From Podarcis gaigeae (Eukaryota): 64,000 nucleotides of DNA. The notes under the pieces were generated by a model that saw only the letters and a list, made by a program, of their open reading frames with translations, had not been told where the DNA came from and did not search any database. Each line of letters begins with the position of its first letter. Position 1 is the stretch's first letter. The stretch lies in the NCBI GenBank assembly GCA_964106915.2, contig OZ066914.1; one strand, 5' to 3'. Positions 31,000 through 44,700 of the stretch are shown here, piece by piece. The translations under genes were made by a program, and so were the position numbers.

Positions 31000-31830
31000 C
31001 TCAAAGTGTGTCCCCCGCCAGCGAGTTAGGAAATACATTTCCCAGAAGCCCTAGCGACACCGCTTCCTTTTGTGGGCAGCTTGCAAAGACCCGCTTGACT
31101 TTAGGCTGGGAGCAAAAGTTACCGGGCGCGCGGGTTTTTCCTTTTTCTAAAAGCATTGCTCGAAGGACAACTGCCGGCGCGTTGGGGAAGAGGCTACTCC
31201 CTCCGACAAGGCAGACCCGATGGCGGCGGCGGCGGCGAGGATCCTGGTCTTGCCCTCTCCCCGCTGCCTGTGGGACGAGCCGGTCCAAGTGAAAGTCGAG
31301 GGTCTGGGGCCGCTGCAGGAGGTGACGCTGCGAGCATCCTTGGTGGACGAGAGCTGCGAGCTTTTCCAATCGCTCGCCTACTACCGGGCGGGCAGCAGCG
31401 GCGAGCTGGACCTCAGCCGCTCGGCGTCGCTGGGCGGCAGCTACTCCGGAGTGGAGCCCATGGGGTTGCTGTGGTCGCTGGCATCCCAGACGCCCTTCAA
31501 GCGCCTGGCCAAGAGGGACGTCCTCAGCCCTTTCCGCGTCACCTACGAGGTGCTCGACGGGCGCGGAGTCTCCGGGCGGCTCCTCGGCGAGTGCTGCAGC
31601 GAGAGGAGCTTTCTGGCCGACGGCGTGGAGAGGATCCCGGTGCGAGAAGGCAGGCTCCGAGCCACGCTCTTCCTGCCACCCGGTGAGCTTCATTCATCCC
31701 CCGCCCCCCCAGGGTCAAGAGGTTGCCACGCTCCTCGGATGAGCATTGAATGGCTCACCTCGGAAGCGCGGGCACTGCCCTTCCTGCCCATACATAATCG
31801 ACGGAGAGAGCCTCGACCAGCTTCGGGAGT
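31000..31830 (+). promoter_or_regulatory. CpG island over the promoter and exon 1 of the acyl-CoA thioesterase gene
   Basis: Very high GC/CpG density spanning the ATG at 31220. Confidence 0.75.
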
Positions 31831-33804
31831 TCATAGGATGGTTGAGTTGGATCCCAAAGGTCATGCAGTCCAACCCCCTGCAATACACTAATTCTGCCCA
31901 CAGCCGCCTCTAGGTGGGCTCGAACCAACAACCTTCTGGTTAACAGTCAGATGCACTAACCCACTGTGCCACCCTATCTTGTGGCTTTGAACTTCTTTCC
32001 CAGTTGTTGCGAGGGTGGTGGGGAGGGCTTTTTCTCCTTCCGGGTGACTCCCATCAGACCCAGTCTCATTAGCCAATGGAAAAGGGGTGATGGGAGCTGG
32101 CTGACTGCCAAGTTCCAGGGTTCCTAATCTCTGTTCTACCCAATAGATTTATTAAATTTTATTTGGGCATTTATAGCCCACAGCTCTATGATAAGTTCAA
32201 GGCAGCTTATAAAGAAGAAGAACTCACAGCAGAAAAATAAAATGGAGCTGAACAAACCAATAGTGCCATAAACAAATCACCATGAAAATTGCATCGCTGT
32301 CAACAGCAGCAGTCTAAAAGCCTTCACTAAAAACAAGTTATGGCAAGAATAATTGCCCCCACCAGTGACACTAATAATGGCAGTGGGACAGCGAGGAGAG
32401 TAGATCCCTTGGGAAGAGGGGATTCTTGAGATGCACAATACCATACTCTGATCATAAGCCCATTTTTGATGATTAAATTCTTTTTTTAGGCCCTGGACCA
32501 TTCCCAGGACTCATTGATTTGTATGGAAGTGGAGGAGGTCTTGTGGAATACAGAGCCAGTCTTCTGGCAAGCCGAGGTTTTGCTACACTGGCTGTTGCTT
32601 ACATGCACTTTGAGGATTTGCCAACTTTCCCAGAGTTCTTTGAAGTGGACTATTTTGGTGAGGCTGTAGAGTTCTTGCGGAAACAGCAGCAGGTAAGAGG
32701 CTCGCTAGAATCGCAGTTCTTTGGTGCTGTGTGCTGCCTGTTTTATTTAATTTAATGCATTTATGCCAAAAGGCTCCCAGAGAGGCTTAAAAGAGATCAA
32801 GTACTAAGAGGGCTCCATGCCCTCAAGTGCACCATTTAAAAAGACAAGACACATGAGGAAAAGGGAGCAGGAGGGAAGAGGTAGAATCCAGCTCAAGCAG
32901 AAGTTCTCGCAAGTTATAGTTCTTACGACACATTTATTTATTTCAACACTTAATATACTGTCTTCAGTAGATGCTTGCCTATGCAGATTATGGTTGGCTA
33001 GATTATGGTTAGATTATGGTTGGCTAGATTATGGTTGGCAGTTATATGCCCCTTTCAGTTTCCAATTCTCTTAAGAGCAGGGGGAGTGCTTTTTTCTTCA
33101 TTACCATGTAGCGCTAAATCTTTCTAACCAGCAGGCTTTTTAAAAGGGGGATAAAACTGACAAACATGGAGCTGACGGCAGTCCTTATCCAACTGTTGTT
33201 TCAGGTGAGAGCTACAGCGATTGGAGTCCTAGGACTTTCCAAAGGGGCAGATCTTGCCCTTGCTCTAGCTACGTTTTGGCCAGGTATCAGAGCGGCAGTC
33301 AGCATTTCTGGCTCAGGTGTTAATGCTTTTACCCCCCTGCGAGTGAAGGGGCTCACTATTCCTGCCTTTCCATGGGACATGGAGAAGATTAAGAACACCG
33401 GTGATCCCGCAGTTGTGGATTTCTCAGAAATCATGGCCGATCCCAAAGACCCAGCTACCTGGCATTGCCGCATCCCTGTGGAGATGTCCCTAGCCAACTT
33501 CCTTTTTCTGTCAGGGCAGGATGACAAAAACTGGCCGAGTGAGTCGTTTTGTCTAGAAGCCGTTAGACACCTCAGGCGGAGTGGGCGCCGTGTGGAGTTC
33601 TATTGCTACCCCGGGGCAGGGCACCTCTTAGAGCCCCCCTATCTGCCTCTGTGCTATACCTCATTTCACAGGCCACTGGGATTTCTCGTGGTCTGGGGAG
33701 GAAAATGGAGAGAACATGCAAAAGCACAGGAAGATGCCTGGCAGAGGATACTGGCTTTTTTCAGACAACACCTGCTGGATTCCACCGTTAAAAGTAATCT
33801 GTAG
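31220..33804 (+). CDS. Type-I acyl-CoA thioesterase (ACOT1-6/BAAT family alpha/beta hydrolase), complete, 3 exons, 421 aa
   Basis: Exons 31220-31682 (463 nt), 32490-32692 (203 nt), 33205-33804 (600 nt), the canonical type-I ACOT three-exon layout. Motifs [55 protein letters not shown]; catalytic triad GLSKG (Ser), GQDDKNW (Asp), [12 protein letters not shown] (His). Ends -SNL. Exact paralogue not assignable. Confidence 0.95.
31830..31975 (-). mobile_element. tRNA(Asn)-derived SINE with CR1-like tail in ACOT intron 1
   Basis: Minus strand GGTGGCACAGTGGGTTAGTGCATCTGACTGTTAACCAGAAGGTTGTTGGTTCGAGCCCACC resembles tRNA-Asn(GTT) with A/B boxes, followed by a CR1 3' end. Related SINE copies at about 51672-51800 and 61777-61930. 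Confidence 0.75.
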
Positions 33805-35767
33805 ATTGTGGTTTTGTACATGTGTGAAGGAGCTGGTTCGCATCCCACTTGACGCGATCCCACTTGATGTGCGCATCCCACTTGAGATGTCGAGAACAGG
33901 TGCGACGCCTACCTGTTCAGCCACGACCAGGTACGCTAGTAATGCGCTACAGACCTCAGCCAAGGCAATTGGTGAAAGCACATTTCCCTCAATGGCTCTT
34001 CCAGAAACTGACAGTGGCAGTTATATGCCCCTTTCAGTTTCCGATTCTCTTAAGAGCAGGGGGAGTGCTTTCTTCTTCATTACCACATAGCGATACTATG
34101 AGCACTTTGTCAGGATATAAGTGTAATGAGTGTTCTCTATTCGGCTTCATCTTGGAACTCAGATTTGAAATAACATGTCATTTTGCAGCCAAACAAAGGC
34201 ATGACAAGTTTACCAGCGCACTAGTGCCCTGGTCATGTGGCAGAGAAAGGTCATACCTAGCACACCTGCAGGGGTGTATCCTCCCTTCACCTGGCCACTT
34301 CATTTCCTCCTGTCTCATGCCATCCAAAAGGTCTTTTAAAGGAATCAATCTCGTTACTCATATCAAGCCAGACCTTCTTGTGAACCCTACCACTTAGTAA
34401 AATTTTGAGAAAGCCTGTTAAATTTACACACCTGTTGCTTTCCTTACATCTTAATACATTTATTATATTTAAGATCAGCCTTAATCAATCAATCAATCAA
34501 TCAATCAAGTAGTACATGAAAATTGCCGCACTCTTAAATTATGTCACTGTTCTTCCTTTGCTTTGTATAGCTCTATTCATTAAGCAATTTGTAATGATAA
34601 CATTTCTTTATATGTAATTAAAAGTGGAAAGAGCTGTCTCCACAGGTATTTTGTGAAGTTTAATGTGATATTGCTGCTTCTGAAAGATTTTTGTAAATCC
34701 CCTAGAGTTGGGGTGTGTGTATAATGACAGAGTATAAATAAAGAATCTAAAACTATGTTCAGAGAGCTTTTTTATATATATAGCATGCATTACCCCTGTG
34801 AATGTTTTTAACACTGTATAAATGTTGAACCCTTCTTTTCTGATTCCTCCGAAGCGTATGGGAAATTGCAGATTAAACATTAACTTGAAACTGAGTTCCG
34901 CCAAGAAGTTTGCTTGCTTAAAACAAAACCATCAGGATCAGTTATTAAACTAACACCCCCTTCCTGTTCCAGTTATATGTAGGAGTATTAAAGTGCATTA
35001 TTCTTATTCTCTTTAAACTCACACATTTTATATGTCAAAAGCTGACATAGCACCTGCTTTTGACATGAGTACAACATCCTTAGAGGATCCTGCTATGTAT
35101 TTTAACCAGATCTGGGCCATTCATTCCACTCAAAGTTTTGAACTGATCATCAGCTTGGGCCGTTCAAGGAAGTGGCAATGTATGAAATGGCCAGTTTATG
35201 CCATTTGCCCTTTCCCTTAAGTGAATGAACTAAAAACACTTCCACTTGCAAACTGATGTTCTCTCATGTATTTTAAGCTAAAATCTAGGCTTGCCCCAAA
35301 CACACAGTAGGAGTGAGTTGTTAAATTGCTGGATGTTCACAGGGTGCGTGTGTTTAAAATCTGTTCAAGTATAAAACTAGCAAAGCAGAGAATGGATTTT
35401 TCTCCATAGTGTGCTACATTTTGTATATTCATAAAGACTTTTGTGGGAAAAGATTGAAGAACTGTAGTGGTACAGTCTACTCTCCCAGCATAGGACTCTG
35501 CTTGTGTCAACCACACCTTAATGTCAATACATGTATCTTAAGGGAAATGAGCACCCATTCAAAAAAAATAAGATGTGAGAAAAAGAATGGCATTTCTTAC
35601 TCTGAAGAGTCACAAATAAGGTGGAGCTTGGGATGTGCATATAATATCTCACTAGCTCTTTGGCACCAGTCATTTTCTTTAATCAAAAAAAGAAGGAAGT
35701 TAGGAGGGTAACTAACACAGCAGAATACTTGGATTCCTGCCCATCGCTACCGCCTCTCATCTGTGCA

Positions 35768-38700
35768 ATGGACATTCTAATGCCTAAGGTAAGATTATTC
35801 AAATATTTTAACTCTTTACTAGTGCTGGACATGATTTTCCTTACTGCAGAGGAAACACAGTACTTGACAAGCTGAATTTCCACAACACGTAAGTGGCCAT
35901 GTAAGATTTTTAGTGTAGCAGATTGAGGGGTGTGTATAACCCCCCCCCCAAAAAAAAAACCACCCCAGAAGCTTTTCTTTTGGGAATTATAGGGAAAGAA
36001 CTACCTAAATTGTATGGAAATTTATTTACGTATGCTACTACAGCAGCAAGAATGTTACTTGCCCCAAAATGGAAAGAAGCAGAAGTCCCAGCAAATGAAG
36101 AATGGATACAAAAACTTATGGAATATGCAGAAATGGCAAAACTTGCCGGAAGAATAAGAAATCAAGATAACAAACTTTTTATAAAGGAATGGAAAATGTT
36201 TATTGAATATTTACAGATAAATTGTAAATAGATGAAAACATTAGCAGGATTATTGTAACAACCTGCAGTTTTATAAGAGTATATATTTACAGTAGATAAT
36301 TAAATGAGAAAGTTAAATGAATTTGAATATGTAGAAGATATTAAGGAACCACAGAAAGAGGGGAAAGGAAGTCAAGTTTTGAAATTTTAAATGGATTGTA
36401 AAACTAATGAAATGTATAAATAAAAAACTAAAGAAAAAGAAGATTCAGAAACAAGTAAGGGCACCTGACTTTAGAAGAGATGAATTAATTTAAATATATT
36501 TTCAAGAGAGTGATATTAGAATATATAATTGTTGATCTAAATGCCATCAAACGCTGCCCAGTATTAATGAAGTCACAAAATATTTCTCATGATCAAAAGT
36601 CCAAATTTAGTGAAATGTAGAACAGCAAGACCATATGGACGGCAATCTTCTTACCAATGCTCTTTATTTTTTTTTTTATAATAATTTTTATTAAGGTTTT
36701 CCAAATTAAGACAAATCAAAACAAATTAAATCCAATCTATAAACTTTTTGCCAATAACTAGGACTTCCCCTCCCTACCCCCTCTTGTGTTCCAAATCTTC
36801 CAAATAAGCAATTAAATTCAACAAGTTCTTATCCCCAAATTACACTCATCATCAATAACCCAATTTATCCAAATTCCCATCCCCTAAGATCGATCTATAC
36901 CCTTCCACGAGTTTCCCCCTTTCAAACATGGTACAGATGGAAATAAGATAAATATGAATAGTGATTTTACAGCCTTTGGATTCCAATTTTCCCTCCCCTC
37001 TTTCCCCTTTGCGTTTCACCTATCCCTCTACTTCTAATATCTTCCTGGAGTTCCCACATTACACTATGTCCCTCAGGTTCTTTGCCAGTCTTTGATTACG
37101 GATGTCCAATCGTAGAAGGAGTCTATCAAAAAAGGGGCCCATTTCTTCTATCCAGGTTTTTATATCCAGGAGTAAAAACTCCAATTTTGTATCCATAAGC
37201 TTGTCAAACCTGAATATCCCAAATGTTCCCCCAGTTCTGTCCAGTTCTTGTTATTTCCTTGTTCTTGTCAATCATTCTCCTCCTTTTTATTTCTCTGTTC
37301 TCCCACAGAAATGTTCTTTTTCCAAAAGTTTCTAGTGTCTCTGCAGAGGCTTGTTACTCATGGAGCAAAGCATTGCATCATGTTCCTTTCATTTTCCAAC
37401 AAATAGTTCCATTGTTTCCTGTAGTGTGTAGACCTCTGTAGACAAAATAATGTTCCATTCCTGCAGTTTCCCAGGAGATTAAAAGTTCCATTCAACTGTT
37501 CAAGTTTCCTGTCAAAAACACATGCAATATCCCTTGGCTCCTCTAGGTGGATTACAGTAGCAAAGTTCCCTTCCAGAATCACATCCACCAGTCCAAGTAG
37601 CTTGTTAACCGATATTTAAAACAATTTATGTTCAATTTATAACAAATATAACCGGCAAAGTCCTCATAACAAAATCTCTATTTTAATCTTCCTTTTTGAC
37701 AGCTCTTTGACAGCTGTCAAAACCTCCATCGCTTTTCTCCAGGCAGTTTCACGAATCGCTCCAGGGATTCCGGGGGGGATTGCTTTTTTTAAAAAAAAAC
37801 AATTCCACTTTTCTCCTCCAGCTCAATCTTATAATTTTCCCTCGCGAAGTTGCTGATTCGGCAAGATAAGGTTACACTCGATCTTAGTTGTCCAGTCCTT
37901 TGTTTTGGCTCTTCTACAATTTAGGGGTGGGCTGACTTCCTTTTTTCCGCCTCCCCCGTTCGCTCCGAATTTTAAAAATTTATCCCTTTTTTTTTTTAGT
38001 CCATGTGATGGGATAATGAGCTGCTTGTGCGTAAAAGCTTGATCCCGCTGGGGTTTGGCCGGTCATCCAAACCCAGGCACTAACGGAGCCCCCAAAAGCA
38101 TGACTCCGTCAGTCGCTGGTAGAATCTGACAGTGGGCGTCTACGGAACTTACGCCAACATAAAAGCTGTTTGACGGACATGCGCTTTCGTGACTCTCTGC
38201 GTGACAGTTTCCGGCGAAGGGAGGGAATTCCTAAAGGGGGTCTAGTTACCTCTTCACTATTCTCACTAGAAGCGTCTGAGAGCCTCCCCTCCGCTGTAAC
38301 TCCTGCACTCCCCCTGCTGGTTCCTGCTTCTGCTGCAGAGTCTCTCCTACTCTGCTGGAGCCTGTCCAGCACCTCTAACTCCGATGGCAGTTCCCTGACA
38401 TCCACCTCCCCCCCAGGCCCCCCTTCACCCCCTCCCGCCTCCTCTCCCACTGGCGGTGAGGGCGGAAAGCCCCTGAAAGAGCAATCCTCGTCATCAGAGG
38501 ATTCAAACACTTCTAGCCACGGCGTCCCATCTCTCTCCCCGTCTTCTTCTTCTTCGTCGGAGGCAGCTTCCTCACCCACCCCTGACTCTGGGAACCCTTC
38601 AAACTCTCCCTCCTCATCGGTGGTCCCAAAGTGTTCCCTTCTAAATCGTGCCACGGGTTGCGGTTTTCTTGGGAAACGCTGATGAAATGTTTCTATTAAG

Positions 38701-41700
38701 ATCTCGTCATTCACTACCTCTGCTGGCACCCAAGTGTTTTCCGACTCTACTTCCCCCTCCCATTCTACCAGATATTCCACCTGATTCCCCTTCCACCTGG
38801 AATCAATGATTCCTGCCACGTTCATGTCGCGCTCTCTCTCTTCTATCACGAGCGTTTGGGTGGCCTCTCTCTCACGCTCCCCCCACTCACGTCCCTCTCG
38901 GTACGGCGACAGTAATGACCTGTGAAATACTGGGTGTAATTTCATGTGACTGGGCAGTCTGAGTTTGAATGCTACTGGGTTGACCTGCTGTATGACCTCA
39001 AAGGGTCCCAATTTCTTGGGTCTCAATTTCTTACTCCCACCCTTGAACGGTAGTCCTTGGGTGGACAACCACACTCGGTCTCCCACCCTTATGATTTCAC
39101 CTTCCCTCCTATTTCTGTCTGCTTGCTTCTTATATTCTTCCTTGGCTCTCTCTAAGTTAAGTTGAAGCTGACGGTGGATCGCTTCCATCTCTTCAAAAAA
39201 ATGTTCCGCTGCCGGCACGCTCCATCTCTCCCCCCCCTCTCCTGGGAATGCCCGGGGATGGCACCCATAGTTTGCCAGGAAAGGACTCATCCCTGTGGAC
39301 ACATTCTCCGCGTTGTTGTAGGCAAATTCGGCCAGCGGTAGCTTATCTACCCAATCATTTTCTCTGTCCTTTACATAACACCTCAGGTATTGTTGCAAAA
39401 TGCCGTTTGCCCTTTCCGCTTGCCCATTAGTTTCTGGGTGTCGGGCAGTGGAGAAATTGAGTTCTACTTGCAGTAAGCTCATAAGTTTCCTCCAGAACCT
39501 GGAAGTAAATTGTTTGCCTCTGTCACTGACCACCCTCAAGGGGGCGCCATGCAACCTGAAAATATGCTCTACAAACAACTTGGCGGTCTCCTCCGCTGTA
39601 ACCGCATGTGAACAGGCTATAAAATGACACATTTTGGTTAATAGATCTACCACCACCATAACAGCTGTTTTGCCTTTGGATTTTGGCAGGTCCGTCATAA
39701 AATCTATGGATACTGCCTCCCAAGGCCTTTCTGGCGTGGGTAAGGGTTGTAATAGCCCCGCTGGCGCCACCCTCTCTCCTTTTGCTCGCTGACACCTGTC
39801 GCAACCCCTAACATATTCCCGCACGTCCTCCCTCACCTTGGGCCACCAAAACTCCCTGGTAACCAACCACATGGTTTTGTGCTGTCCAAAATGTCCCGCT
39901 GTGGGGCTGTCATGCAACTGCTTGAGTACTCTGCCCCTCAGTTCCCCATCTGGTATGTACAGTGCCCCTTTGTAATACAACGCCCCGTTCTTTTCTTCAA
40001 ATCCCCCTGTGTTCTCTTCTGTCCTCCTGAGTTCTCTGAGTTTCTCTTGGGCGTATTCATCGTTCTCCGTACCTTCCATCAGTTCCCTTTGCCCCACCAA
40101 TGCCGCCCCACACACCCAGCGGTCTTCGGAGATTACATGCCTTGCCTCAGGCGCTCCCTCCCCCTCTAAGTACTCAGGTTTCCTGGAAAGGGCATCCGCT
40201 CTCACGTTCTCTGAACCTGGCACGTAACGAATCTCAAAGTGGAATTTGGAGAACTCCTGGGCCCATCGCACTTGTCTCTGGTTCAGGACACGGGCTGTTC
40301 TCCAATATTCCAGATTTTTGTGGTCAGTTCGGACTTGAACCTTGTGTTGCGCCCCAATCAGCAAGTGCCGCCATTTCCGAAATGCTTCATGAATGGCGAG
40401 CAGTTCTCTGTCGTACACTGTGTAGTTCCTCTCGGATTTGTTCAATTTCCGCGAAAAGAATGCACACGGTCTCCATTCCGACGTATCCTTTCCCGGCTGG
40501 AGAAGCACGGCCCCCACTGCTCGGTCTGACGCGTCAGTCTCCACTCTCATTGGTTGTTGTAGATCCACGTGCAGAAGCTGTTCTTCCGACGCAAACGCCT
40601 GCTTTAGGCGTTCGAACGCCCGCTGCGCTTCTTCCGTCCAAACAAATTTCTTTTTGCTACTAAGACAATCTGTGATGGGCGCGGTCAAATGGGCAAAGTT
40701 TTTGATGAACTTCCTATAGAAGTTTCCGAACCCCAGGAACCTTTGCACGTCCTTCTTGGTCTTTGGTGTTTTCCATTCCAGTACCGCTTGAACCTTGCTG
40801 GGATCCATGGCCAATCCCTTGTCAGACAACCGGTACCCCAGGAATTCCACCTCCCTAGTATGAAACTGACACTTCTCCAGTTTCACCCACAGCCGGTTTT
40901 CTCGCAGTTTGCTCAGTACCTCTCTTACATCTCGCACATGCTGCTCCTCATTCTCTGAGTACACCAGGACGTCATCTAAGAACGCTACGCAGTTCTTGTA
41001 GAGCAATGGCCCCAGGACGTGATTCATGAATGATTGAAAACAGGCGGAGCCTCCTTGTAATCCGAAAGGCATAACGAGGTACTCAAACGCCCCCAAGGGG
41101 GTGAACATAGTGGTCTTCCACTCATCCCCCTTCCTCACACGTATCAAGTTATATGCCCCCCTAAGGTCCAGCTTGGTAAAAATCTTCCCTTTTCTCACCT
41201 GTGTCAGAATGTCATCAATTCTAGGCATAGGGAAAGTCACTGGTTCTGACACTGCATTCAGGGACCTGAAATCACACACAAGTCTGGGCTTGCCCGTGTG
41301 TTTTTTGTCCACAAAGAACACTGGACTGCCCCCCACCGCTCGTGACTCTCTGATGAAACCTCTCTTGAGATTCTTGTCAATGAACTCCCTTAACTCCTGC
41401 ATCTCACTGTCTGACATTGCATACAGCTTCCCCACTGGCAATTGTGCTCCTGGGAGTAAGGTAATTTGACAGTCAAAGGGTCTGTGCGGGGGCAATTTAT
41501 CCGCTTCCTTTTCGCTGAATACGTCAATCAAGTCAGCGTATTGTGGTGGCACCTTCCCCTTGTCCATCACTTCCACCCCTGCTAGAGTGGCCCTGCTGCC
41601 TGCCTGGGCCTCTCCCTCCTTGCAGTGTTCTAGGCAATGTGCTGATCCAAAGGAAACCACGCGCTGATGCCAGCCTACTAGCGGATCATGTAGTGCCAGC

Positions 41701-44700
41701 CAGCTCATTCCCAAGATAATAGGGGCTCCTCCCAGGGTGGCTACGTTAAACGCTATCAGTTCTGTGTGCCGTGCCACCCTCATTATCATTGGTACAGTCT
41801 GTTGGCTCACTTCTCCTCCCAACAGCTCCCTCCCATCAATCGTGGTAACCTGCAAAGGCTTACTTAATGGGATAGTCTGTATCTGGTGCTCAGCTGCAAA
41901 CTCCTTACTCATGAAATTACATGAGCTACCTGAGTCCAATAGCGCTCTTATCTTTAGTGGGTGTCCGTTTGCCAGTTCCAGCAACACCTCTATCACAAGT
42001 GCTGGTCTTGGGGGTTCCGGCGTGGGCACATTCACTACTCCCTGGCCTGGCTGCTGTGCCCTGATGTTGGCAACCAGGCGTTGGCTTTTACTTGCTCCTT
42101 CATTTCATCCTCCTCCTTCCCCCCAACAGTTCCTGCCATCCCTTGCCATTCCTTCCTTTGCGGACAGACTCTGGCAAAGTGACCTGGCTGTTGGCAGAGA
42201 TAGCATCTCTTGCCGCTCTTTCCCTCCTTCTTCCGCCCTTCACTGGTGTTTGAAACTGTGCGCGCGCGCGCTGCTCCAAGTTCCATCGGCTCTGCTGGCG
42301 GGAAAGGCTGCTCCGGAATCTCTGGAATGCGGAAGTCCTTCCAACGTTCCCCCTTTCCTTCCCGCTTTTCCAAAGCTCTAGCCTCCTGGCGTGCTCCTAT
42401 GGACAGCGCTGATTTAGTCAGCTGGTCCATAGACTCCGCCCTAGGCGCCCGGGAAAGTTCATCTTTCACTGCCGGAGAGAGACCTTCTTCAAATAGCATT
42501 TGAATAGGTTCACTAGCAAGGTTCCACCCCAGTCTATGAATCAGCATGGTGAACTCAGTCCAGTACTCACGTACAGATCGGCTCCCCTGTTTACAAGCCA
42601 TCAACTCCCTGCGCACCATCCCCTGCTCAATCTCGCTGGAAAACATCAAGTCCATGGCGCGAAAAAACTTCATTGTGTCCTTTAAGATTTCATTATTGGC
42701 TGCCATCAGGGGGCGAACCCAGTCCCTCGCCCCTCCCTCTAGATGGCCAATCACGTACGCCACTCTAGAGTTCTCATCGGGGAAGTCATCAAACAGTAGA
42801 TTGAGAGCATATTGCATCTCTGTTCTAAAGGCTTGATAGTTCCTGGGATTCCCCCCAAATTTCTGCACCAATCCAGGCACCCTTCTGGCAAGTGGGGTGG
42901 TTTTCCCCTTATCTGCATCTTGAGCCCTCCTCTCCTCCAGCCTCGCCGTTTGCAGTGCGAGCTGGACCTCCAACGCCCTGTACCTTTCTTCCAGGCTTGG
43001 ATCTGCTCCAGCTCCAGCTGCCCCGGTTCCTGCTGGTTCACTCATGATGCCCTCTGCTTGCACAAACAGCTTTCGGAGACTGTCAGATTGCTGTGATGGG
43101 ATAATGAGCTGCTTGTGCGTAAAAGCTTGATCCCGCTGGGGTTTGGCCGGTCATCCAAACCCAGGCACTAACGGAGCCCCCAAAAGCATGACTCCGTCAG
43201 TCGCTGGTAGAATCTGACAGTGGGCGTCTACGGAACTTACGCCAACATAAAAGCTGTTTGACGGACATGCGCTTTCGTGACTCTCTGCGTGACAGTTTCC
43301 GGCGAAGGGAGGGAATTCCTAAAGGGGGTCTAGTTACCTCTTCACTATTCTCACTAGAAGCGTCTGAGAGCCTCCCCTCCGCTGTAACTCCTGCACTCCC
43401 CCTGCTGGTTCCTGCTTCTGCTGCAGAGTCTCTCCTACTCTGCTGGAGCCTGTCCAGCACCTCTAACTCCGATGGCAGTTCCCTGACAGTCCATATTCCA
43501 ATTACTCACGGGTTCTTCTTTAGAGCCGAATTTTCAATAGAAGAAGTCAGCGCTCTCCGCCGGATGGCATGCGGCTGCGCTCGGCAGGGATAGCAGAGAA
43601 CTCAAAGCACCACGCTTCTCCCCGGCACCCGATCTGTAGCCTTTAAAAAGGCTCCTTCACGAGTCGGGAGAGCGCTAACGGTGCCAGCCGAGTCTCCATG
43701 TCCACGGCCTCCTCTGGCCGTGGTTTTTAAGGGTCCCCGCATCGCCGGTGCGGTAGGACCCAGCCCCTGCCAAGCCGGCTCCCTCCGGAGCTCGGAGGGA
43801 GTCCGCCATTCGGCGATGGCGCCGACCCGGAAGTCCTTACCAATGCTCTTTATAAAGGCCAAACCAATGGAATGATGGAAGCTACAAATCAATTCAGCCT
43901 CATAGACGCTGTCCCATTGCTGCCTTTGGTCACAGTACTATCCTGAGTCACGTATATGTATTCAGACCATGAGCAAACTTGCAGAAACACGTTCAGGTGC
44001 CTACAAATCATTTGAAAATGGATCACATGTCATCTGATAAACCTTGAGCTGGGCGCTCCTTCGAGAAAATCAAAAGAATAAGAACGGATGAAGAATTTGA
44101 AACCAGTGACGAGAAAGTGATCAGGTCTAGTGGCATGACAGAAATGAGGTATTTGTTACGGGTCACATGGGTGCTTGTTCTGAAATTAATACTTCAATGG
44201 AGAATATAACAAAATCCATACTATATAATTAGTGACCAACACAAGAAAGCCACTGATGGAAGGAATCGCTGTGACTTAAAGAACTCAATGCTAATTAGAT
44301 TAAGTGCTTTTGAAGAGAATTCTCAATTAAGGAACATGATCAATAACAGCTAATATTGAAATGACAAAGGAAGATGGGAATGGAAGCTATGAGAGAGAAG
44401 TGTGTAATTAAATATTTTTATAGGTGATTTTAATAATCACAGCTTGGGGGGGGGGGAGTATCCAAATATTTTTACAATAGTAATGTTTCTGCACCAGAGT
44501 AAGGAAGACTCAGTCATAGTTCTGTATTTCCCCCCCCTGTACAATGATAGGAATTTCAGATATCTTTATTTTTAACTAGGGAGAATGGTCAATCTATCCT
44601 TCTACTGAAATGACTAATATTTTGTTTTTTGATGTAAGTACCCAAGTTGCACTATTAATTCAGCAACATTTGTTTTCTGTAAAGGTTGAAACCTCTCCAT

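Follow-up and report, generated by a model that had tools for sequence, protein, structure and literature searches.

Candidate TIM mimics follow a degenerate chromodomain in the integrase of a lizard chromovirus clade

A clade of chromoviruses in the lizard Podarcis gaigeae was found to encode, directly after an integrase chromodomain that retains a single residue of its aromatic cage, two acidic FxGF motifs resembling the TND-interacting motifs (TIMs) of cellular proteins. We regard these as TIM-like rather than as proven TIMs, and they probably bind some TND. The fuller interpretation, to which we give a nearly even chance, is that the clade may have lost its own methyl-lysine reader and gained two phospho-switchable TIM mimics, with which LEDGF/HRP2 would be rented as integration tethers; it would then be the first mobile element to run on the cellular TIM code, along a route independent of the lentiviruses.

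Structure of the element and its integrase tail

The window analysed is a stretch of 64,000 nucleotides from contig OZ066914.1 of assembly GCA_964106915.2, and it includes a full-length Gypsy/Ty3 chromovirus, the features of which are collected in Table 1. The element is flanked by a 5-bp target-site duplication, TGGAC. By domain search its Pol protein carries, in order, reverse transcriptase, RNase H, an integrase zinc finger, the rve core, a Tf2-1 SH3 domain, a chromodomain and a tail; this is the Gypsy order with a chromodomain at the integrase C-terminus, and the same SH3 and chromodomain ending is found in group I chromoviruses (MAGGY and vertebrate Gypsy elements) and in the plant elements with group II chromodomains. 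A self-priming primer-binding site, complementary to the element's own LTR, is a trait of the Tf1/sushi type. Pol extends 97 codons into the 3′ LTR, where its C-terminal stretch is basic and dual-coded with LTR signals; since this stretch overlaps the self-priming target, conservation there may be at the DNA level. The same LTR-encoded end (window 38400-38109, minus strand) includes an LLCW word that is also present in P0005, a related protein described below.

Table 1. Features of the chromovirus in the window
Feature	Position in window	Strand	Evidence
Gypsy/Ty3 chromovirus, Tf1/sushi type, full-length, TG...CA ends	38004..43488	-	ORFs, domains, LTRs
5′ LTR, 397 bp	43092..43488	-	397/397 positions identical to 3′ LTR
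Primer-binding site, 11 nt, complementary to LTR 43221-43211 (self-priming)	43079..43089	-	sequence complementarity
gag ORF, stop to stop	42035..43150	-	Retrotrans_gag, Ty3_capsid, zf-CCHC domains
pol ORF, 1331 aa, stop to stop	38109..42104	-	own frame, overlaps gag end
Chromodomain, aromatic cage degenerate	38676..38819	-	Pfam and HP1 comparison
Motif 1: short helix ending in F (ARFRREH, predicted); acidic linker of 8 residues containing T-T-D-E; FEGF	38592..38648	-	
Acidic spacer, sequence and length varying between subfamilies	38520..38591	-	
Motif 2: WxxxF anchor; acidic linker of 9 residues containing S-S-D-D-E; FRGF	38466..38519	-	
Polypurine tract	38401..38414	-	sequence
3′ LTR, 397 bp	38004..38400	-	LTR comparison

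The closest named protein relatives of the element were Podarcis proteins. A search of the element's own genome, in which 150 of 3252 candidates were scored, yielded a young set of at least 124 near-identical copies, including that of the window, with 99-100% identity over the chromodomain and tail. This near-identity, together with the identical LTRs, indicates a very recent burst of the family.

Both motifs lie in frame within the Pol ORF directly after the chromodomain, the first beginning six residues past it, and since they are situated upstream of the polypurine tract and the 3′ LTR they are not LTR sequence. The original prediction, made from the letters of the window, had described two tandem FxGF motifs at this point, and they were present where it had placed them (38645-38592 and 38519-38466, minus strand); its motif strings likewise matched, apart from an extra codon at the ends (38648-38589 and 38519-38463). 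A pattern comprising a hydrophobic residue, a 7-16-residue acidic linker and FxGF had two matches, and no more, across all six frames of the window. Two matches were obtained in 5e-5 of 100,000 shuffles of the 184-residue tail, and in 2.7e-4 of shuffles of its 87-residue pre-LTR part, values that flatter the pattern somewhat because the expression was devised for this analysis after the motifs had been seen. The two motifs are also alike in DNA, only 1 of 500 shuffles being as good, which suggests an old internal duplication, with motif 2 probably derived from motif 1.

The chromodomain and tail were modelled together with AF2, which from 8 sequences gave a folded chromodomain and, at low confidence, a helix on motif 1 and none on motif 2. 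With this shallow alignment the pLDDT of the tail was mostly below 50 past residue 90, as of a disordered region. Searches of the PDB by phmmer with either the tail or motif 2 returned no hits at an E-value of 10, and an ESM Atlas search with the tail (best 0.80) gave no lead.

Resemblance to cellular TIMs and conservation of the motifs

A TIM is defined, in the available text of PMC9987994, as a helix, an acidic linker of 8-16 residues in which CK2 sites occur, and an optional FxGF, the last of which is present in every known partner of LEDGF and HRP2. The layout in the window fits this definition, as had been proposed, with the helix predicted for motif 1 only and at low confidence: each motif has a hydrophobic anchor, an acidic linker of 8 or 9 residues, CK2-type sites and FxGF, and both are located in sequence predicted by AF2 to be disordered. 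The same anchor, linker, FxGF and disorder are described for the cellular FxGF TIMs, or IBMs, of JPO2/CDCA7L, IWS1, MLL1/KMT2A, MED1, POGZ, CDC7-ASK and DPF3a (PMC9987994), to which JIL-1 of Drosophila can be added (PMC6877644). JPO2 and ASK carry two TIMs in tandem (PMC9987994), as the element does with its candidates. Cellular TIMs reside in host proteins, whereas the candidates described here reside in the integrase of a mobile element, and both window motifs miss the strict consensus of 2015, [E/D]xExFxGF, as quoted in bioRxiv 2023.01.30.526367. Across the copies of the genome the strict form was found in 19 of 31 motif-1 and 4 of 29 motif-2 sequences. At the position lacking the strict acidic residue, 21 of the 29 motif-2 copies have S or T, the phosphorylation of which could make the position acidic.

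The frequency with which the strict consensus is missed is one of several points that would favour functional motifs with some other partner, either another acidic-aromatic receptor or a part of the element itself (its chromodomain, integrase or Gag). Others are the closeness of motif 1 to the chromodomain, the non-acidic FxGF variant of the P0008-type elements (see below) and the presence of further conserved residues, namely the RF that starts motif 1, a W in motif 2 and a P after both. We consider a different partner possible, if somewhat unlikely, given that the anchor, linker length, CK2 sites and FxGF fit the TIM definition twice over and that the AF2 model, from its 8 sequences, showed no packing of the tail against the chromodomain.

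Conservation was assessed in the window copy and 30 older copies from the same genome, the latter being 42-72% identical to the window over the region (n = 31); as the copies are related, these counts are not independent events. Motif 1 was recognisable in all 31, with FxGF in 30 and FxCF in one, and motif 2 had FxGF in 29, the two misses being disrupted copies. The original prediction that both motifs would be kept within a drifting tail was borne out, in that mean conservation was 0.98 over the ten anchor columns, against 0.74 in the spacer and 0.60 downstream. The chromodomain scored 0.85, and the motifs taken whole were only modestly above the spacer (0.83-0.85 versus 0.74). The anchor F before the linker was invariant. 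Changes in the codons for F and G were mostly synonymous, with TTC invariant at the first F of motif 2, and the x of FxGF was free (E, V, M or K in motif 1; R, Q, M or W in motif 2), which together are the mark of selection acting on the motif as protein. Linker length fell to 7 residues in 4 of the 31 motif-1 copies, and by sequence a CK2-type S/T-x-x-D/E was present in the linker of 29 of 31 copies of motif 1 and 29 of 29 of motif 2. The spacer of the older subfamilies (L034-L063) was also seen to include an acidic word, ESDW, that is absent from the young family.

The region is of low complexity and close to the polypurine tract, and in the window copy the motifs are overlapped by a serine-rich antisense ORF of 192 residues (window 38104-38682, plus strand). 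These features would suit a pattern that arose by chance, the tail being purine-rich, or conservation at the DNA or RNA level through a cis element or an overlapping frame. Such an origin appears very improbable in view of the shuffle frequencies, the synonymous changes in anchor codons and the retention of a motif at 47% identity in a distant relative. A constraint imposed by a cis element or by the antisense ORF was itself rejected, the antisense frames not being consistently open (in 1, 15 and 9 of 28 copies), with the anchor codons free to vary synonymously.

Protein relatives were taken as the best 150 of 15,152 representatives, and 6 of the 156 proteins examined from outside the element's own genome carried the pattern. 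Three of these, P0001-P0003, are Podarcis proteins that keep motif 2 and have L or M where motif 1 otherwise has its first F. P0004 carries both motifs, P0116 carries motif 1, and P0005 carries motif 2 only, at 47% identity; a homologue search with the P0005 tail retrieved, besides P0005, a single protein, which lacks the motif. A related Podarcis family (P0008, P0275 and P0276) has FxGF behind an S/T/P-rich, non-acidic linker together with a second LxGF, and its chromodomain is further degraded, the cage W also having gone. A different accessory module, an AT-hook-like (P/R)RGRP positioned right after the chromodomain, was seen in 22 of the 150 chromovirus representatives (P0021, P0030 and P0031 amongst them).

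Loss of the chromodomain cage and a candidate LEDGF/HRP2 tether

Compared with the Y/W/Y cage of HP1 (Y24, W45 and Y48), the element clade retains only the W, in 31 of 31 copies, and it has thus lost two of the three cage aromatics that mark HP1-like group I chromodomains. A sister family in the same genome had an intact cage and no FxGF at 30 of 30 loci; its copies are also older, which would make them a poor control for insertion preference. In a tree from a quick search, built on the integrase sequence upstream of the chromodomain and comprising 88 rows drawn from 168 candidates and the window, the FxGF-bearing rows formed one 17-row clade (SH-aLRT 99; one row without a tail included), the neighbour of which was a cage-intact squamate family (support 89). 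The loss of the cage and the gain of the motifs coincide only once, as a single evolutionary event, and their association is therefore suggestive only. Group II chromodomains, reported in the available text of PMC3350952 from plants only, are defined by having lost the first and third aromatics of the cage; the element clade resembles these in lacking both residues, and differs in its lizard host and in the addition of the FxGF motifs. If the tail does reach the LEDGF/HRP2 domain, the cage-intact sister and the FxGF family without a cage would form a natural before-and-after pair, within one genome, bearing on the role of the chromodomain in vertebrate chromoviruses.

The reading we prefer, with a confidence somewhat below even, is TIM mimicry in which LEDGF/HRP2 would serve as a broad chromatin tether. 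The disordered integrase tail would dock in the nucleus on the IBD/TND of LEDGF and/or HRP2, the S/T residues of its linkers probably being phosphorylated by CK2, and the presence of two motifs per integrase would contribute avidity. The PWWP domains of LEDGF/HRP2 would hold the intasome on nucleosomes, substituting for the methyl-lysine cage that the clade has lost. The outcome would be broad tethering to chromatin, silent chromatin included by way of HRP2, with no strict preference for gene bodies. We infer this binding, its partner, the phosphorylation and the role at the integration step. The host genome encodes the IBD exons of PSIP1 and of a second gene that we take to be HDGFL2. A complex prediction of the Podarcis PSIP1 IBD with motif 2 (ipSAE 0.01), run with alignments unused and controls not folded, was uninformative either way.

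Tethering of integrases by motifs is already known; the TIM code in a mobile element would be new. Integrase C-terminal targeting motifs link Ty1 to AC40, Ty5 to Sir4, MLV to BET proteins and HTLV-1 to PP2A B56. In these, too, a host transcription or chromatin factor is bound by a short motif located in the disordered tail of the integrase, sometimes with mimicry of a cellular motif or control by phosphorylation, but their partners differ and use of a TIM is unreported for them in the searchable literature. Lentiviral tethering through LEDGF/HRP2 has the same host domain and purpose as those proposed for the element's tail; lentiviral integrases, however, contact LEDGF via the folded catalytic core and N-terminal domain and not via a linear motif. 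Such tethering is regarded as a lentiviral trait, and if the preferred reading is correct, the linear motif of a retrotransposon would represent convergence by a different mechanism and would extend TIM biology to mobile elements. The viral-mimicry section of PMC9987994, in its available text, covers lentiviral integrases only and leaves transposons unmentioned. Searches of the full-text literature, the scope of which excluded subscription papers, the primary TIM papers and supplements (with any proteome-wide motif lists), retrieved no paper that describes a TIM or an FxGF motif for a retrotransposon, nor any linking a lizard Gypsy integrase to LEDGF.

Insertion sites of the window copy and the young family

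Two genes flank the window copy, which is antisense to both: an ACOT-like transcript has its 3′ end approximately 2.5-3 kb before the copy, and the coding exons that could be identified for a PLA2G4-type gene begin 1.2 kb after it. The former, presumably an ACOT gene by our reading of the ORF, has three exons (window 31075-35600, plus strand) that are spliced in three runs presumed to be RNA; the latter (window 44684 onward, plus strand) has C2, cPLA2_C2 and PLA2_B exons. Among the joints listed in contigs of the three presumed-RNA runs, none crossed the element. The copy may be intronic, and only if the first exon of the PLA2G4-type gene lies upstream of it.

A strict, HIV-like version of the tether, in which LEDGF would steer insertions into H3K36me3 gene bodies, draws on the same motif evidence as the broad tether, and on the location of the window copy between two genes about 9 kb apart, possibly within the PLA2G4 first intron. 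The very recent burst of the family allows its insertion preference to be read from population data. Young copies followed chromosome length, with 122 of the 124 on 20 large contigs (chi-square p 0.42, one length being approximated). In GC (p 0.47) and CpG (p 0.56) no difference was seen between the 6-kb flanks of 40 young copies and 20 random regions, in a comparison of low power made free of annotation; strand skew (p 0.22; 33 versus 19 regions after masking) and repeat share were also alike, and oriented strand skew, used as a genic proxy, was positive in 16 of 33 flanks and thus gave no signal. Lentiviruses strongly prefer gene bodies, whereas no such preference was seen among the insertions of the element by these indirect measures. 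Satellite heterochromatin is disfavoured under HIV-like LEDGF targeting, yet 13 of the 124 young copies were located in satellite arrays. We therefore judge the strict gene-body version improbable. Of the mimicry for host tethering that had originally been proposed, the TIM-like part is supported by conservation, layout and the IBD exons of the host; insertion into transcribed gene bodies found no support in the weak composition test, and is difficult to reconcile with the roughly 10% of young copies that lie in satellite.

In these 13 copies (L007, L016, L028, L126, L143, L151, L154, L193, L217, L218, L231, L232 and L245, on G000 contigs C2, C3, C8, C15, C17, C23, C24 and C150) the 3′ flank belonged to one satellite family with a 176-186-bp unit, on seven chromosomes and one small contig. 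An exact 15-mer of the satellite occurred 46,630 times and was present in 0-83% of units across seven arrays. A satellite share of approximately 0.55-2% of the assembly translates to a 5- to 19-fold enrichment of insertions (binomial p <=1e-6), which may be inflated if the assembly collapses pure arrays yet keeps inserted ones; the direct control, with 0 of 20 random regions in satellite, was not significant (Fisher p 0.22). The lacertid TaqI family reaches a share of up to 5% according to the available text of PMC7397244, and with the share set to this figure, taken from a possibly different satellite, the enrichment was 2-fold (p 0.009). Relaxed selection in satellite adds to the enrichment.

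Insertion within the repeat unit was itself clustered, 6 of the 13 copies having inserted at the same base or two (one judged by eye), or 5 of 12 when a neighbouring pair was counted once (p 2.5e-5). The shared site is a G+C-rich spot between A/T tracts that was used in both orientations, and two more copies have a second spot in common, about 27 bases away. Clustering at one position of the unit suggests an effect of DNA shape or of nucleosome phase, in which the motifs need not be involved. HRP2 is reported to bind H3K9me3/H3K27me3 peptides and to associate with CBX1 and POGZ (PMC4797281, available text), and is described as an H3K36me2/3 reader in that of PMC9987994. Invoked after the satellite result, this binding of silent marks would reconcile TIMs with satellite insertions.

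By the proxies used, most insertions look random, as might be expected if LEDGF/HRP2 or another TND were bound for a purpose other than targeting, such as nuclear retention, integration efficiency, gap repair or the blunting of silencing; both LEDGF and HRP2 are described in the available text of PMC4797281 as promoting DNA repair. The motifs nonetheless occupy the exact site of integrase targeting modules and arose in the clade without a cage, and we hold a non-targeting purpose to be unlikely.

Two tandem arrangements were observed amongst the young copies (G000:C16:77473402/77478490 and C1:101483819/101488907), in each of which the two copies are 5088 bases apart and have one LTR in common. 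The 29.5-Mb contig G000:C32, which is probably the W chromosome, harboured 46 of 69 older copies of the clade, yet only 1 of the 124 young ones.
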